DNA from: Patescibacteria group bacterium
GTDB taxonomy: Bacteria > Patescibacteriota > Patescibacteriia > UBA1558 > GWA2-36-10
Assembly: GCA_041665545.1 (NCBI GenBank)
Contig: JBAYIQ010000001.1
Coordinates: 222,448-286,447, forward strand
DNA length: 64,000 nt
Reading direction: 5' to 3'
Shown in pieces: positions 28,588 through 44,672 of this stretch. The notes beneath the pieces were generated by a model, which worked only from the letters and a program-made list of their open reading frames with translations, was not told the origin of the DNA and made no database searches. The translations under genes were made by a program, and so were the position numbers. Position 1 is the stretch's first letter. The number at the start of each line of letters is the position of its first letter.

Positions 28588-29553
28588 TTATATTAGTTCG
28601 CCAATAAAATTCTGTTGGCCGATTTGCTCAAAAGAAGCAATCTTATCCTTGTTGGCCATGGCCCACATGGCCTTGGCCATGGCTGATTCAAAAGTGCAAG
28701 CTGTCATGATTATTGCTTCATCAGGACCGTGTACCTGAATAGGGTGATAAAGAAATACTGGAATTTTAGAATCTTTGATTTGTTTTATTTTGGCTGGCTC
28801 TAGTTTGTTTTGGTGATTGAGCTTGATAAACAAAGCATCATAATTATTCTGTTCAAAATTTGTTAGCCAAGTAAGGCCCGGTAAATCGTCAAAAACAAAA
28901 ATATTGGCTTTGATTTTATTGTAAATCTTTGGTTTTCCAGTGTGATAGCCAAGGCCAGATTTGACGCTAATACCAAAATCTACTCGACCCCAATAGTTAT
29001 CATCAATGCTAGCAAATAAATTTAAGCCCGTATCCTTGTCACAAGTGGCACGCACTCCCGGAATAAGCCGAGTGCCAAACATAATAGCTGGCGTAGGCAA
29101 ACTGTAATCCAACACTTGAAAAGCATTTATTAAATTGGAGCGCAAACCCAAATCGTTTTTTTGACCAACAATATTTTTGCTTAGCTCAGCTGTGCCACTA
29201 CGAATGGCTGAGGTCAAAACCACTGTCTTTTTTATATTCTGCAGTAAAAAACTTAAGGCGTTGGCCGTCATTAATAGCTGGTCTGAGCGCGAAACAACCA
29301 CAAAACCACTGCTAGAGTCCAAGCGTTCAGCAATCTGCTTGGCCATTTCTTGCCAATGTTCCGGTGTCAAAATACTGTCTTCTGGGGCAATAAAAATCGG
29401 CTCCACTTCGGCTAATAACCTAAGCTCGGGCATTTGCTTGAGCCAGATTTCAATATCATCAGGACTCTGGATAGTAAGCAACCTTTTGTTCTGATCAAGT
29501 AAAGCTGTGCCACCAGCCAACAACAAAGTAATTTTTTTTCTTACTTTAGTCAT
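28588..29553 (-). CDS. L-asparaginase/GatD-like family protein; probable start at the internal Met (MTKVRKK)
   Basis: Motif LLLAGGTAL resembles the asparaginase TGGT signature. The first 13 residues of the track ORF overlap the upstream gene. Confidence 0.45.
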   Translation of the reverse strand: MTKVRKKITLLLAGGTALLDQNKRLLTIQSPDDIEIWLKQMPELRLLAEVEPIFIAPEDSILTPEHWQEMAKQIAERLDSSSGFVVVSRSDQLLMTANALSFLLQNIKKTVVLTSAIRSGTAELSKNIVGQKNDLGLRSNLINAFQVLDYSLPTPAIMFGTRLIPGVRATCDKDTGLNLFASIDDNYWGRVDFGISVKSGLGYHTGKPKIYNKIKANIFVFDDLPGLTWLTNFEQNNYDALFIKLNHQNKLEPAKIKQIKDSKIPVFLYHPIQVHGPDEAIIMTACTFESAMAKAMWAMANKDKIASFEQIGQQNFIGELI

Positions 29554-30241
29554 TGATTTTTTCTTTAGGAGAAATAATAAAACCAAAAACAACTAGATTA
29601 ATAAATAGAGTAAATAATGGGCCCATGTGAATGGAAGTAAAATTATCTTTATACATGGAAAATAGATTAAAGTAACTACCAAAAGCAGTACCCATGATAA
29701 CTCCGAATAAAACCAAGCCGATTTGGGTTCTAAATATCCCGTCTGATTTTATATATTTATCGACTAGAAAATAGATTGCTGAAAAAATTACTAAAACCAT
29801 GAAAATAGTATATATTATATAACCAGCATTATTATAAGTTGCAAAATTTATTGATCCAATTCGGACGCTATCTACAAAATAATTGTAGCCAAATATAGTA
29901 TATATAATAATTAAAATACTAACAATATTTATTAACCATTTAAATAATTTATTTATTTGAATTTTTTTATAAGGAAAATAGAGAGAAAAGTAGAATAAAA
30001 AAACTATAACTAACCAGGCCATGGTGTATGGTAGACTAGAGAAAAATCTCAAAGCATCTTCGCTTAAGCTAATATTATAAAAAACTAAGCTAGCAGACCA
30101 GAGAAAAACAAAAAATGTCATCAAACTAAAATATAAATTTATTTTATTTTTTTGGCCACGAAAAAAAACAAACAAACTCATGCCTAAATTTGTCAAACCA
30201 GTAATTGATAAAATTAAATTTTGTGAGTCAGTTAAAATCAT
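29546..30241 (-). CDS. Stand-alone 7TM sensor-like membrane module, tandem paralog 1 of 3
   Basis: 231 aa multi-pass membrane protein sharing the N-terminal pattern (GL.NL.M.FFVF.RG..NKINLYF.L.TFF.F.W) and C-terminal ISPKEKI with the two neighbours and with the N-termini of 31671-33056 and the kinase at 18795-21605. Confidence 0.6.
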   Translation of the reverse strand: MILTDSQNLILSITGLTNLGMSLFVFFRGQKNKINLYFSLMTFFVFLWSASLVFYNISLSEDALRFFSSLPYTMAWLVIVFLFYFSLYFPYKKIQINKLFKWLINIVSILIIIYTIFGYNYFVDSVRIGSINFATYNNAGYIIYTIFMVLVIFSAIYFLVDKYIKSDGIFRTQIGLVLFGVIMGTAFGSYFNLFSMYKDNFTSIHMGPLFTLFINLVVFGFIISPKEKIND

Positions 30242-30245
30242 ATCT

Positions 30246-30944
30246 TTAATTACTTATTTTTTCTTTAGGGGAAATAACAAAAAACACAACTATGAAATTC
30301 ATTAAAACCGTAAAAATTGGGCCAAGCCAATCAAACCTATAATCATTAAAATATTCAATAAATAAATCAAAATAACTCCCAAATGCCAATCCAATAATAA
30401 TCGCAAACAACAACATTTTAATTTGCTGCTTTACCACGCCCTCTGCCAACTTATATTTTCTGAATAATTTACATAAAGCCCAAACTGCCACTATAACAAA
30501 ATAAACGGCATAAAGAAAAAATCCCGCCTCATTGTAATAAGAAATATACTCATAATTGCTATAGGCCCTAACCGTCTCCGTGATAAATCCCTTGGTATAA
30601 ATAAAAAATGATAAAATTATCGCCATCAATAAAATAAGAAAATGATAACTTTTTTTTAGTTTTTCAATTTGGTAGGGAAAGTGATGAACAAAATAAAATA
30701 AGGAAATAACAATTGCTAACGCGGAAACATAAGTGCTCCTAGCAAACAAACCAACCAAATTTATATCTGAAATCGAGCGTGAGATTAATAGTCCCAAACT
30801 CCAAGTAAAATTAAAAAAGGTCAGTAAACTAAAATATAAATTTATTTTATTTTTTATACCTCGTCTAAAAACAAAAAAAGTCATAAACAAATTAACCAGA
30901 GCAGCAATCAATAAAATAAAATTTTGAGTTGAAAAAATTATCAT
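30246..30944 (-). CDS. Stand-alone 7TM sensor-like membrane module, tandem paralog 2 of 3
   Basis: 232 aa. Same architecture and conserved termini as paralog 1. Confidence 0.6.
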   Translation of the reverse strand: MIIFSTQNFILLIAALVNLFMTFFVFRRGIKNKINLYFSLLTFFNFTWSLGLLISRSISDINLVGLFARSTYVSALAIVISLFYFVHHFPYQIEKLKKSYHFLILLMAIILSFFIYTKGFITETVRAYSNYEYISYYNEAGFFLYAVYFVIVAVWALCKLFRKYKLAEGVVKQQIKMLLFAIIIGLAFGSYFDLFIEYFNDYRFDWLGPIFTVLMNFIVVFFVISPKEKISN

Positions 30945-30948
30945 ATCT

Positions 30949-31644
30949 TTAATTACTTATTTTTTCTCTAGGGGAAATGATGAAATAAAATACTACCGCA
31001 TTCATAAACAAAGTGAACACCGGACCAAACCAAGCATAATGATAATTAGCAAAATAACAAAGTATCAAATCAAAGTAAGCGCCAAAAACCAAACCTATCA
31101 AAATAGCAATAAATAATATTAAAGTTTGTTTTTTGAAATAAATGTCTGGCATTTTAATTTTGCGATACAAGTTTAGTAGAGCTAACCCAGCCACAAAAAT
31201 AAAATAAACCCCATATAAAATATAAAACGGCTTGTTTACATACAGCGTGTATTCATTTCTGGCTAAATCTTTGGTAAAGCTCAATACAAACGCTCCTTTT
31301 GTATAAACGATTATTGATAAAATAAAGGCTGGGGCTAAAAGCACCAGATCATAAATTTTTTTATTTTTACTAGTTTGTAATGGAAAATATTTGGAAAAAA
31401 AGTAGAGCGACAAGGATATCCCCAAGGCAATGGGATAAGCCAAAAGTGCTCCGCCATAAAACCAAAAGTTAATATTTTCACCCATTCGAGCAATCAATAT
31501 TGTCATGGTCCACAGAAAATTAAAAAAAGTAAGCAGACCAAAATACAAGTTTATTTTATTATTAAAACCACGGCTAATAACCACAAAAAACATCATTAAA
31601 TTAACCAAGCCCGCAATCAATAACAATAAATTTTCTATACTCAT
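30949..31644 (-). CDS. Stand-alone 7TM sensor-like membrane module, tandem paralog 3 of 3
   Basis: 231 aa. Same architecture, ending ISPREKISN. Confidence 0.6.
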   Translation of the reverse strand: MSIENLLLLIAGLVNLMMFFVVISRGFNNKINLYFGLLTFFNFLWTMTILIARMGENINFWFYGGALLAYPIALGISLSLYFFSKYFPLQTSKNKKIYDLVLLAPAFILSIIVYTKGAFVLSFTKDLARNEYTLYVNKPFYILYGVYFIFVAGLALLNLYRKIKMPDIYFKKQTLILFIAILIGLVFGAYFDLILCYFANYHYAWFGPVFTLFMNAVVFYFIISPREKISN

Positions 31645-31670
31645 ATTTATTAATTAATATTGAAAAATAA

Positions 31671-33056
31671 TTATTTTTCTTCCTTATTAGCCATGGCCTG
31701 CTGATAAAGCAACAAACTGCCAATGGCAATATCCAAATATTTGTTCACTTCCTTCAAAAAATCCAGTTGCTGTTGGTAAATCAGCTTTTTATTGTTATCC
31801 AGCATGACTACTCCCAAAAGCTGATTATTATAGTATATTGGGAAAGATATGTCAATATGATGATTAACCAGCTCTTGGCTCAGCTGGGGATCAAGCCCCA
31901 AGTAGTGCACTTCTGGACTATGAAGTAAATCTTGATTTTTAGCCAAATATTTTAAAAGCAAATCCTGCTCCATGTGCAGTGTGCGCTCGCCCACTGGAAA
32001 TACTTGGTGGAAAAAATTAGCATCCCCACGCTTGGACAAATAAATAAATATTTCTTTGTAATCAATCACTTGGGCAATTTCTTTGGACAGTGATGACATC
32101 AATCTATTGAGATCACGACTAGAGCGCAAGATCACGGCAATATTATTTTGCGCTTGAATTATTCTCTCCAAAGGATGATAAATAAAAAACTTAGCCGCCA
32201 CACTGGCTAGACCAAATAAAATAGGTGCGGTCAAACCAAAAAATATCAAAAACAAAATACTATTTATGCTGCGAGAAAAATCCACCTGTACTGGCCCGCT
32301 GAGTACTAAATACAGCAAAGCATAAACCAAGCCAGTCAAAAGCAAGCGCACCAAGTTGACCAAGGTTTTGTAAAAACTTATTTTCAAATCCAAAAAGCGG
32401 TAGCGAAACAAAGCATACACCACAATAGCGGTAAATATCACGCTACTATTAACTCCCAGATAATAAAACTCCACCACTCCCAAAAGTGGTAAGAAAAAAA
32501 TAAAAATCAAAGCCGAGATAGCGGTCAAAGCCGTGGCCACAAAAATATAGTCAATTTGCTTTTTGACTATCTGATCATAGCGACTGCGCTGACGAATCAA
32601 CACTACCAGGCCCCAAGACATGAGGGTGAGAAAATAGGCCGCAAAATAAAAATAAATCGGCCCTGGTACATAAGCGACACTGTTTTGGCCGACGACAATA
32701 CTGCTGACATTATATTTGCTAAAAACAAAGGGCGACATGATATAAGCGGGCAAGAAAAAAAGATGCTGTTTGCTGCGAACTTTTTTCCAACCATCAACCA
32801 GTAAGTAGCTAAGCCAGACAAAGACCGGGGCAATATACAGTGTTGGCAATAAACCAGCGCGCACTCCCAGTAGCAAGGATTGACTGCGTAATAAAAATAA
32901 AATATTAAACAGTTCACTGCTCTGCCATAGCCACAACAAAAAAACCATGATGAAAATTGGCCAGCGCCTTTGCTTATTTTTGTTGAGGAGTATAAAAAAC
33001 AACAAGCCCAGATTGATCAGCCAAACTACTGCTAAAATTAAAGTATCTAGTGTCAT
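31671..33056 (-). CDS. 7TM sensor-like membrane domain fused to a C-terminal GAF-like cytoplasmic domain; no kinase domain
   Basis: 461 aa. Multi-TM N-terminus related to the three tandem paralogs, with a roughly 160 aa soluble C-terminus. Confidence 0.55.
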   Translation of the reverse strand: MTLDTLILAVVWLINLGLLFFILLNKNKQRRWPIFIMVFLLWLWQSSELFNILFLLRSQSLLLGVRAGLLPTLYIAPVFVWLSYLLVDGWKKVRSKQHLFFLPAYIMSPFVFSKYNVSSIVVGQNSVAYVPGPIYFYFAAYFLTLMSWGLVVLIRQRSRYDQIVKKQIDYIFVATALTAISALIFIFFLPLLGVVEFYYLGVNSSVIFTAIVVYALFRYRFLDLKISFYKTLVNLVRLLLTGLVYALLYLVLSGPVQVDFSRSINSILFLIFFGLTAPILFGLASVAAKFFIYHPLERIIQAQNNIAVILRSSRDLNRLMSSLSKEIAQVIDYKEIFIYLSKRGDANFFHQVFPVGERTLHMEQDLLLKYLAKNQDLLHSPEVHYLGLDPQLSQELVNHHIDISFPIYYNNQLLGVVMLDNNKKLIYQQQLDFLKEVNKYLDIAIGSLLLYQQAMANKEEK

Positions 33057-33268: not shown

Positions 33269-33445
33269 TCCAACTTAGCTTGAAACGCTGGCGGGAGGGA
33301 TTGATACCTCATGATGTGCCCTGGACTTGGACACTGCGGGGGTTTGGAGGGAGAAAGTGCAGTGGAAGTCCATAGGCGGCCGCCAGCGTATTCGGGAACA
33401 AATGATTGCTCACTACCCTAAAATACTAACACTGACAGTTTTTTT
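33269..33445 (-). ncRNA. Candidate structured leader or ncRNA immediately 5' of the tRNA, with its own promoter
   Basis: Minus strand carries TTGACA (RC of 33448-33453), a 16-nt spacer, then TAGTAT. Downstream of this promoter, a long-range 9-bp helix CGCUGGCGG/CCGCCAGCG (plus 33288-33296 with 33400-33408) encloses nested helices UGGACUU/AAGUCCA and CACUGC/GCAGUG and a 21-nt C/U-rich loop containing CCCUCC. Confidence 0.3.
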
Positions 33446-33570
33446 GTCAAGAAAATAGGTATGCCTCCAGTACCAAGAACTAGAGCTTGTTTATTATCTA
33501 GAGTCAACTAATACCACATCTCGCCCCGTAGCGACCCAGCTCCTCGCGAGGAGTTGGGTCGCTTATGGGG

Positions 33571-36103: not shown

Positions 36104-37105
36104 TTATTTAGCAATTTGTCCAATCATTTCTATTAAGCGACAAGAATACCCCCACTCATTGTCATACCAAGCAATAATTTTGACCATATTGCCGCCAACT
36201 ACTTTGGTCAAGGCCAAATCAACTATAGAACTGCGTGAATCTTTAATAAAATCTGAGGAAACTACTGGCTCATCAGTGACACCCAAAATATTTTTCATTC
36301 TTGGTGATTGACTAGCTTTGATCAAGGCTTTATTTATTTGCTCGACAGTCGCATTTTTTTTCAACACAAAAGTAAAATCAGCCAAAGAAACAACAGCAGT
36401 TGGTACGCGAATAGACAGACCATCAAACAAACCCTCCATCTCTGGTATTACTTGACCAGTGGCAATAGCCGCACCAGTAGTAGTTGGTACAATATTTTGA
36501 GCGGCTGTGCGTCCGCGACGCGGATCTTTGTGTGGACTGTCAACCAAATGCTGATCAGCTGTATAGGAGTGAATAGTGGTCATCATGGCTTTGTCCACAC
36601 CAAAAGTATCTACCATCACTTGCGCCACTGGGGCAATACAATTGGTAGTGCAAGAAGCATTGGAAATTACTTTTTCATTTTTATATTTTTTCTCATTGAC
36701 ACCCAATAAATAAGTCATAACATCGGCACCCTTGGCTGGAGCAGAAATAATTACTTTTTTGGCGCCAGCTTTGATATGCAAACTGGCTTGTTCACTTTTT
36801 ACAAAACGGCCAGTACATTCCAAAACTACATCTATTTTTAATTTCTTCCAAGGCAATTTATCTGGCTCAGGCACAGCTGTCACTAAAAATTTTTTGCCAT
36901 TAACTATAATATTATTATCCTTGGCTGATACTTTTTTATTATAGCGACCATACATAGTGTCGTATTTCAATAAATAGGCCAGAGCATCAGCCGGAGCCAA
37001 ATCATTGATGGCTACTACTTCATACTTGGAGCTATCCAACATTATTTTGAAGGCCGCCCGACCAATGCGACCAAAACCATTGATTGCTACTTTTATTTTT
37101 GCCAT
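36104..37105 (-). CDS. gap: Glyceraldehyde-3-phosphate dehydrogenase
   Basis: 333 aa. N-terminus INGFGRIGR and active-site ASCTTNCIAP. Confidence 0.9.
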   Translation of the reverse strand: MAKIKVAINGFGRIGRAAFKIMLDSSKYEVVAINDLAPADALAYLLKYDTMYGRYNKKVSAKDNNIIVNGKKFLVTAVPEPDKLPWKKLKIDVVLECTGRFVKSEQASLHIKAGAKKVIISAPAKGADVMTYLLGVNEKKYKNEKVISNASCTTNCIAPVAQVMVDTFGVDKAMMTTIHSYTADQHLVDSPHKDPRRGRTAAQNIVPTTTGAAIATGQVIPEMEGLFDGLSIRVPTAVVSLADFTFVLKKNATVEQINKALIKASQSPRMKNILGVTDEPVVSSDFIKDSRSSIVDLALTKVVGGNMVKIIAWYDNEWGYSCRLIEMIGQIAK

Positions 37106-43824: not shown

Positions 43825-43908
43825 AACCCCCACGCGCCGAAGCGAATGGGGGCTTTGAAAAGGATCTAGTCAGACCGGTGAACCAGACAATGTCTCATCG
43901 GCACAACT

Positions 43909-44220
43909 CTAGATTCTTGTTGAGCCATCACCGACAAGACCGTCGCCTGACGAACCGTGCTCGACCTCGTCTACAATGGGCTGTTCGGCGGTAGCGACTT
44001 CGGGAGCCCTCAGTGGCATATCCAGAAATGGCTCGACACGCTGATGCAACTTGAAGGCATCCGGCTCGCTAGCTGCCAGAACGATAACCTTCCTGAATAG
44101 ATCTCTGGCAGTGCCCATATTACGCGCCAAGTTGCGTATGTTGAGCCCACCCTGCAGACCGCTGTCAAGAGAGCTACTGAAGAGACTAATCAGAAATGCA
44201 CGCTCATCTGAGTCTAGCAT
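43909..44220 (-). CDS. Hypothetical protein in a GC-rich islet
   Basis: 104 aa from ATG at 44220 (MLDSDERAFLISLF...) with GGAGGGAGG 6 nt upstream. Local GC is far above the genome background. Confidence 0.4.
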   Translation of the reverse strand: MLDSDERAFLISLFSSSLDSGLQGGLNIRNLARNMGTARDLFRKVIVLAASEPDAFKLHQRVEPFLDMPLRAPEVATAEQPIVDEVEHGSSGDGLVGDGSTRI

Positions 44221-44390
44221 CTTACACCTCCCTCCAAACACGGGTTAATGTACAATAGATTCAAGCCCATCTTACAATATCAATCAAATTTGTCAACAAA
44301 AAAAGCCAAAATACTGGGCTAGGCAAAATAAAAACCCAGTGCTAATATAATACAATTGGGAAAAATCGGGTACGAAAGGAGGTGCACCCG

Positions 44391-44597
44391 ATGCCTAGCA
44401 TGACCAAGTATGTTGTCTTCACTGGCCACAACCCCGCCGTTCCTTTTCCGCACTTCGAGCTCCGGATCGAGAGTCTCTCTGTCGACGATGTCGTGGAGTG
44501 CAGACACGACCAGCAGGTGTTCCACTTCCGTGTCACCGAGATCGACAGCTGGTTGATGACTGCCAAAGCCGTTCTGCACGCCAAGGGCGCAACCTGA
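44391..44597 (+). CDS. Small hypothetical protein in a GC-rich islet
   Basis: 68 aa (MPSMTKYVVFTGHNPAVPF...) with AAGGAGG 9 nt upstream of ATG 44391. Divergent from 43909-44220. Confidence 0.4.
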   Translation: MPSMTKYVVFTGHNPAVPFPHFELRIESLSVDDVVECRHDQQVFHFRVTEIDSWLMTAKAVLHAKGAT

Positions 44598-44617
44598 AAC
44601 GGAGCCCGAACCGAAAA

Positions 44618-44672
44618 CCGCCCTGTACCAGTCGCCACTTGTGTGGCTCCGGTACAGGGCGGGTATTTTTTT
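44618..44672 (+). terminator. Rho-independent terminator, possibly bidirectional
   Basis: Stem ccgccctgtacc/ggtacagggcgg with an inner stem gccac/gtggc, followed by tattttttt. A-runs lie on the other side. Confidence 0.55.

Follow-up and report, generated by a model that had tools for sequence, protein, structure and literature searches.

Upstream of a tRNA gene in a member of the Patescibacteria lies a GC-rich, structured segment preceded by a promoter, raising the question of whether this segment is a leader or regulatory element that belongs to the tRNA, the remnant of an attachment site of an integrated element, or a small RNA gene in its own right. The original prediction had placed these options side by side.

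A predicted promoter and a structured RNA core precede the tRNA

Within the window, i.e., the whole stretch of 64,000 nucleotides that was analysed, the segment occupies an intergenic region downstream of an aminotransferase gene (Table 1). The genes that follow it (29546-33056) form a tandem array of four paralogues coding for membrane proteins whose N-terminal domains are of the HisKA_7TM type; one protein, of 461 aa, shows a weak GAF match below threshold, and the other three measure ~231 aa. The leader forms a GC-rich patch (~53% GC versus ~37% for the genome). The promoter predicted earlier on the minus strand, i.e., TTGACA, a 16-nt spacer and TAGTAT, is present, matches the consensus at 10 of 12 positions and is extended by a TG ahead of the -10 hexamer. 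Transcription would start near 33416, 7 nt past the -10, which gives about 148 nt of transcribed leader. The element was first described as a GC-rich, structured leader of ~190 nt; GC-rich and structured it is, but that span (33460-33269) includes the promoter, and the transcribed part comes to ~148 nt.

The predicted fold of the core is a three-way junction. Its closing helix is present and encloses nested helices as originally described, but is 10 bp long rather than 9 bp, and the nested helices themselves (UGGACUU/AAGUCCA and CACUGC/GCAGUG around a 21-nt loop) were recovered in both the minimum-free-energy and the centroid folds. The element had also been thought to run straight into the tRNA; instead, a 16-nt linker intervenes. 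The 157-nt leader folds at -53.5 kcal/mol, versus -39.1 +/- 3.9 for shuffled sequences (z = -3.7, with 0 of 200 shuffles as good), the leader folded together with the tRNA and terminators gives z = -6.2, and the z-scores across folds run from -3.7 to -6.7. The apical loop is predicted to be unpaired with a probability of at least 0.99 in each of five versions of the locus.

Table 1. Features of the locus in the window and in sister strains. Positions without a strain handle are those of the window.
Feature	Position	Strand	Description
Intergenic region	between aminotransferase gene 34659-33622 and first HisKA_7TM gene 33056-31671	minus	Holds promoter, RNA core and tRNA
Aminotransferase terminator + TATTTGAC	33608-33570	minus	Upstream copy of ~38-bp direct repeat
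GC-rich palindromic hairpin (33563-33530) + following block	33569-33455	minus	Upstream of small RNA promoter
Putative sigma-70-type promoter, extended -10	33450-33423	minus	TTGACA 33450-33445, 16-nt spacer, TG-n-TAGTAT, TAGTAT 33428-33423
P0, small 5' hairpin	33411-33396	minus	GAGCAA-UCAU-UUGUUC; centroid fold, RNAalifold
Core, ~105-nt three-way junction	33285-33389	minus	Folds and inverted repeat
P1 closing helix	33389-33380 with 33294-33285	minus	ACGCUGGCGG/CCGCCAGCGU; 10 bp, 100% complementary
P1 as DNA	33389-33380 and 33294-33285	minus	Perfect 10-bp inverted repeat ACGCTGGCGG/CCGCCAGCGT; repeat search
P2 arm	33377-33318	minus	Folds
Apical loop, 21 nt	33358-33338	minus	ACUUUCUCCCUCCAAACCCCC; C-rich; folds
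P3 hairpin	33310-33295	minus	GAGG/CCUC (also GGAGG/CCUCC); abuts P1, makes three-way junction
Linker, 16 nt	33284-33269	minus	UUUCAAGCUAAGUUGGA; between closing helix and tRNA
tRNA	33268-33193	minus	Rfam tRNA, 58.8 bits; ARAGORN
Intrinsic terminator of small RNA-tRNA unit	33183-33146	minus	AGCCCAGGU...ACCUGGGCU then UUCUAUUUU; sequence and fold
Second terminator (stem 33146-33130) + TATTTGAC	33155-33116	minus	Downstream copy of ~38-bp direct repeat
Promoter of next gene	33120-33092	minus	-35 is the TTGACA of the downstream direct-repeat copy
Window version			Aminotransferase terminator, then promoter - core - tRNA - terminator
L129/L130/L131 version			Aminotransferase terminator, then promoter - core - tRNA - terminator
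L123 version			Promoter - core - intrinsic terminator (10-bp stem and T tract); without tRNA
L004 version			Promoter - ~95-nt GC-rich hairpin - core - terminator; without tRNA
L124/L125 version			Promoter - hairpin - core - tRNA-like - terminator
~95-nt GC-rich hairpin	L004 5133-5226; L124 4112-4204		Inside small RNA transcript
L004 terminator	directly after core		GGGGCCCG...CGGGUCCC then UUUUCUAUUU

Sister strains keep the promoter and core with or without the tRNA

By synteny, four distinct sister versions were located, each following an aminotransferase gene whose product is 89-91% identical to that of the window (the aminotransferases of the compared strains are 89-97% identical among themselves). 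All five versions have the promoter and the ~105-nt core, three have the tRNA and two a ~95-nt 5' hairpin, such that all four combinations of the two optional modules are observed. In an alignment of the window with L004, L123, L124 and L129, neither promoter hexamer shows any difference, nor does the TG, and the spacer varies. The gene that follows the locus varies as well, encoding a HisKA_7TM protein in the window, HisRS in L124 and, judging from its N-terminal sequence, TrpRS in L004.

Because the tRNA-less versions keep the promoter, core and terminator, the core is an independent small RNA gene, with the tRNA as an accessory 3' module. The view of the element as a leader fused to the tRNA, or as a tRNA-linked regulatory element, fails at L123 and L004, where the promoter and core run into an intrinsic terminator and the tRNA is missing. 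The alternative offered in the original prediction, a novel small RNA, agrees with the retention of the promoter and core in five versions and with their lack of any matching Rfam family. A covariance model built from the core (R1) scores 140-159 bits on all five versions and, across the window and ~0.9 Mb of other sequence, detects no second copy of the core.

Beyond these strains, the 78% and 60% aminotransferase relatives (L005 and L127) carry a class II tRNA-Ser(CGA) at the site, and the core is absent; more distant aminotransferase homologues come from Magasanikbacteria, Giovannonibacteria and similar groups. The tRNA-Ser(CGA) of these two relatives (L005 5050-5310, L127 1165-1420) is set between long complementary arms, GGAGGAGUGCC...CCCCGUA and UACGGGG...CUCCUCC-G-CCA, which resemble a processing stalk or a nested tRNA-like shell. 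Further along in L005 (5329-5680), a small ORF that by eye looks like the GIY-YIG type precedes a T-arm-like sequence, which carries an insertion and ends in ...CCGCCA and may represent a tRNA that is disrupted or bears an intron; tRNAs of Patescibacteria with group I introns have been described (PMC13011429).

The core is under sequence constraint

Identity between the core of the window and those of the other versions is 86-90%, versus 67-75% at the 4-fold degenerate sites of the adjacent gene. The exception is L004 versus L123, the closest pair compared, for which there is no excess core conservation (0.914 versus 0.888 at 4-fold sites). A 27-nt block, UCCCUCCAAACCCCCGCAGUGUCCAAG, which takes in the loop and the 3' strand of the P2 arm, does not vary in the alignment of all five versions, and neither does the loop segment UCCCUCCAAACCCCC (33352-33338, minus strand); on the 5' side of the apical loop, L004 carries a 4-nt deletion.

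The helices, as opposed to the sequence, gained nothing from covariation. The five sequences are compatible with a common structure (97% of cells pair, versus ~40% in controls with the partners slid), and none of the 38 pairs changes on both sides, among sequences too closely related to be informative. One-sided changes within helices split into 5 wobble-compatible and ~5 disruptive, as expected from unselected transitions, and within P0, one G.U pair becomes A-U and one pair that closes the loop is broken. Since no pair covaries, the secondary structure is a thermodynamic prediction only.

The tRNA is an accessory module

The tRNA has a GCU anticodon and a 5-nt variable loop, AGGUU, which places it in class I, and measures 76 nt including an encoded CCA. 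ARAGORN labels it 'Ser' on the GCU anticodon alone. Bacterial tRNA-Ser is class II, with a long variable arm, and the class II tRNA-Ser(CGA) of L005 and L127 is 92 nt long, unlike the 76-nt tRNA of the window. We rejected the latter as a canonical bacterial tRNA-Ser: the serine anticodon is present, and the long variable arm is absent. Similarity leaves the isotype ambiguous, at 72-78% identity to tRNA-Arg, -Gly, -Ile, -Asn and -Asp. The acceptor end is atypical, with an A1.C72 mismatch and U73, and its C2:G71, G3:C70 and U73 are presumably Gly-like. These atypical features are retained in L129 and L124.

No promoter separates the core from the tRNA, and so the two would be co-transcribed. Within the shared transcript, UUGGA of the linker can pair with UCCAA at the 3' end of the tRNA, which would lengthen the acceptor helix to 12 bp, with a single mismatch, and this pairing is preserved in L124 and L129. 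Such pairing of the leader with the tRNA 3' CCA could hinder normal RNase P cleavage.

In L124, the 5' 47 nt of the tRNA are identical to those of the window and the whole T arm is replaced (L124 4396-4412 versus window 33220-33204), from GCUGG-UUCGAAU-CCAGU in the window to AUCCC-GUGUUGC-GGGAU. The 5-bp stem and 7-nt loop are kept, the T-loop consensus is lost, and all five stem pairs are altered on both sides, with the flanking tRNA sequence identical or nearly so. From this pattern, the replacement looks like a cassette-like swap, not gradual drift. The resulting tRNA-like module scores 36.2 bits with Rfam, versus 58.8 for the tRNA of the window, and ARAGORN does not call it.

AGY serine codons are common in one tRNA-bearing strain. 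Given that these codons are freely used and that near-identical strains lack the tRNA, the tRNA is accessory and is unlikely to be an efficient non-serine decoder. It is probably in the main a co-transcribed passenger or a module for 3'-end formation or stability.

Small RNAs released from tRNA precursors are known, e.g., 3'ETS-leuZ of E. coli. As in that case, the window, L129 and L124 have the RNA and a tRNA on one transcript, from which tRNA-processing enzymes would free the RNA; unlike 3'ETS-leuZ, the small RNA precedes the tRNA, brings the promoter with it, forms the part that is conserved and occurs in sister strains without any tRNA. Another parallel is found in vertebrates, where RNase P acts at the tRNA-like element of MALAT1-mascRNA and so defines the 3' end of the non-coding RNA. 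Here too, a non-coding RNA directly precedes a tRNA or tRNA-like cloverleaf, the module of L124 keeps the fold without a canonical T loop, and terminator-ended and tRNA-ended versions alternate, as if they were interchangeable 3'-end makers. The present case differs in being bacterial, with its processing a prediction, and in that the tRNA of the window otherwise looks competent (58.8 bits, encoded CCA).

The core matches no known RNA family

The cmscan search against Rfam 15 covered the entire window and four relatives at gathering thresholds; for the window and L004 regions, it was extended to E <= 10 with permissive filters. In the window, no Rfam family matches the core at E <= 10, and the tRNA is the sole family to pass thresholds; at the 3' end of the L004 core, BjrC68 scores 14 bits (E 0.43), versus a family threshold of 39. 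Rejected for want of an Rfam match as detectable relatives were tmRNA, RNase P, SRP, 6S, 5S, T-box, riboswitches, small ribozymes and RsaE, and by-eye comparison separately rejected 5S, SRP, RNase P, tmRNA, 6S, tRNA-Sec and ZTP motifs. ARAGORN finds no tmRNA. The exclusion of RNase P RNA and tmRNA in the original prediction is borne out by the Rfam result, and that of tmRNA by ARAGORN as well.

Two likenesses nevertheless merit a closer comparison. As in 5S rRNA, a three-way junction is closed by a helix of ~10 bp, and the 5' start of the core, CUGGCGGCC, we take to resemble that of E. coli 5S rRNA. Unlike 5S rRNA, however, the core measures ~105 nt rather than ~120 nt, its second arm is a 4-6-bp hairpin, loop C and loop E motifs are missing, and there is neither a match to Rfam 5S_rRNA at E <= 10 nor a blastn match to E. 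coli genomes. As in tmRNA and the bacterial Y-RNA-like YrlA, a structured RNA is combined with a tRNA-shaped module; but ARAGORN finds no tmRNA, Rfam yields no tmRNA or Y-RNA-like match, the tRNA is a complete, separable 3' unit, no tag reading frame is seen, and the neighbouring genes include none of the Ro family.

Searches for homologues elsewhere were negative as well. A metagenome scan with CCCTCCAAACCCCC-N25-55-CCCTCCC returned 117 loci, all of them chance matches, and a search of genome contigs by the aminotransferase led to L004 and L005 only. Scans of viral contigs, and blastn against phages, plasmids and E. coli genomes, yielded no homologues of the core, and none turned up outside the clade in any of these searches. 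The locus is a novel, lineage-restricted small RNA whose general kind, bacterial small RNAs, is already known.

A candidate mode of action through the C-rich loop

Our preferred reading, held with moderate confidence, is that the core represents a small non-coding RNA gene in its own right, belonging to a narrow lineage of Patescibacteria, rather than a tRNA leader, and that it acts through its invariant C-rich loop; the transcription, processing and function of the RNA we infer. The conserved extended -10 sigma-70 promoter would drive a transcript of roughly 250-270 nt in the window, comprising, in order, the small 5' hairpin P0, the three-way-junction core, the 16-nt linker, the accessory tRNA and the intrinsic terminator. 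The P2 arm would be long and capped by the unpaired C-rich loop, with P3 stacked against P1. In the versions with a tRNA (window, L129, L124), a small RNA of ~150 nt would be released when RNase P cuts at the tRNA 5' end, and in L123 and L004 the 3' end would be made by the intrinsic terminator directly after P1. The exposed loop segment UCCCUCCAAACCCCC would then serve as the working surface, pairing in trans with G-rich RNA targets, much as C-rich-loop small RNAs of Firmicutes do. That the loop acts by such pairing is possible, and we propose it tentatively, by analogy.

In the Firmicutes small RNAs RsaE and RoxS, C-rich loop motifs base-pair with G-rich Shine-Dalgarno sites. The RNA described here likewise has a stand-alone gene with its own predicted promoter and intrinsic terminator, a length of ~100-150 nt and an unpaired C-rich loop as the presumed interaction surface. 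It differs in that its core has no sequence or structure homology to them (no Rfam match) and forms a three-way junction, and in that host genes here are largely without G-rich Shine-Dalgarno sites and no conserved target was found.

The loop does contain CCUCC, identical to the anti-Shine-Dalgarno core, as the original prediction stressed; the weight of this identity is weakened, however, as GGAGG occurs within 25 nt upstream of only 1 of the 45 putative starts in the window, rarer than in the intragenic background. Starts without a Shine-Dalgarno motif include those at 37105, 36028, 34659 and 33056. Moreover, start regions of the window bind the loop no better than they bind shuffled loops, and worse than does the intragenic background. 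Since starts are rarely Shine-Dalgarno-led and there is no binding excess over shuffled loops, general targeting of Shine-Dalgarno sites is unlikely.

One perfect 12-nt complement to the loop, GUUUGGAGGGAG (minus strand, 44228-44239), coincides with the strong ribosome-binding site of a 103-aa ORF (43909-44220). The expected count for the matching 12-mer is 0.01, or ~0.1 over all 12-mers in the loop. This ORF has no homologue in the protein collection beyond its own strain and is absent from the relatives. We rejected it as a conserved target, there being no homologues in sister strains, and because it is confined to its own strain, it cannot explain the conservation of the RNA in the others. 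The surrounding region (43900-44650) is a GC-rich island (50-56% GC versus ~37%) between the DUF3048 and PrmC genes, and holds two divergent small orphan ORFs, 43909-44220 (minus) and 44382-44597 (plus), both with strong Shine-Dalgarno sites, which sets them apart from nearly every other gene of the window. The 103-aa ORF looks horizontally acquired. On a far-reaching version of the pairing idea, the invariant anti-Shine-Dalgarno-like loop would block the ribosome-binding sites of Shine-Dalgarno-led, probably horizontally acquired genes, with the decoding-impaired tRNA-like module as an interchangeable 3'-end maker. We regard this as a long shot, with the 12-nt match in the GC-rich island as its only lead; if true, it would amount to translation-level silencing of foreign genes in a lineage without Shine-Dalgarno-led genes of its own.

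Alternatively, the pyrimidine-rich loop and the GGAGG/CCUCC hairpin might bind or sequester a protein, with no mRNA pairing involved; partners could include RNA-binding proteins with a KH or S1 domain, or a factor associated with the ribosome and specific for the CCUCC that resembles the 16S 3' end. Such a protein-binding or decoy RNA would account for a loop that is single-stranded and invariant, for a strong promoter and a stable GC-rich fold in an AT-rich genome, as is typical of stable RNAs, and for the small number of Shine-Dalgarno-bearing mRNAs available for pairing. However, the locus has no linked candidate protein, the genes next to it differ (HisKA_7TM, HisRS, TrpRS), and there is no likeness to the protein-sponge RNAs in Rfam. 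We consider this explanation rather unlikely.

Rearrangement of the locus and the remaining alternatives

The locus is rearranged, since the GC-rich hairpin block changes sides: by blastn, it lies 5' of the promoter in the window and 3' of the small RNA gene in L123, L124 and L129. Hairpins homologous to the post-tRNA terminator of the window occur in L124 and L129, and every terminator shares the CUUUCUAUUU tail. The sequence points to recombination between the repeated terminator/-35 elements as a probable route. The palindrome of the window spans ~47 nt (33522-33568), and no other copies of the long GC-rich hairpins of this lineage were seen in the sequence examined.

This plasticity, in which modules are gained and lost and the hairpin block switches sides, could be taken to mean that the unit is a young, effectively neutral product of recombination, i.e., a GC-rich insert or the remnant of a mobile or integrated element that by chance came to lie downstream of a promoter, at a hot spot of rearrangement. 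Such an origin would fit the flanking of the unit in the window by ~38-bp terminator/TATTTGAC repeats, its limitation to one narrow clade and the lack of covariation. We nonetheless deem it improbable: the core and promoter hexamers survive all rearrangements and diverge less than 4-fold sites, and no other copies exist in the 64 kb or in the flanks of the relatives. Nor is there an integrase, transposase or recombinase among the neighbouring genes, and the ~38-bp direct repeats consist of duplicated terminator/-35 units and do not correspond to tRNA 3' ends, which tells equally against the remnant attachment site once suggested for this locus.

Three further explanations fare worse. An ordinary pre-tRNA 5' leader, removed by RNase P, degraded and without function, would suit the window, where the segment lies upstream of the tRNA under a promoter common to both. 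It is very improbable in view of L123 and L004, where the promoter and core occur without a tRNA, each with its own terminator, and of a core more conserved than neutral sites next to a tRNA that is the variable part (absent in two versions, its T arm replaced in one). A leader acting in cis, of the riboswitch or T-box kind, with termination and antitermination as its means of controlling the next gene, would agree with the terminator that follows the core in every version and with the aminoacyl-tRNA synthetase genes next in line in two relatives (HisRS in L124, TrpRS in L004); it is hardly tenable, however, with downstream genes that differ by strain and have their own promoter after the terminator, no evident antiterminator alternative, and no T-box or riboswitch match at E <= 10. 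That the core instead encodes a small protein, in an ATG...TAA frame of 33 codons (33373-33272), is scarcely credible, and we rejected it: the core is not coding because the 4-nt deletion shifts the frame in L004 and a stop follows after 20 codons in L123, L124 and L129, and the start codon, moreover, sits inside a helix.

Implications

The best-supported description of the locus is a structured small RNA of ~130-250 nt that is lineage-restricted, driven by a promoter and equipped with optional modules. As the evidence stands, its importance is modest, the RNA being confined to one lineage and no conserved target having been found. Regulatory and structural RNAs of the Patescibacteria (CPR) are, however, almost unexplored, and a GC-rich RNA gene that is constrained, has a promoter and can exchange its 5' and 3' modules offers a concrete candidate to look for in metatranscriptomes. 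If the tRNA does act as a processing or stability module, the locus would provide a bacterial parallel to the tRNA-like 3'-end formation of eukaryotic non-coding RNAs.
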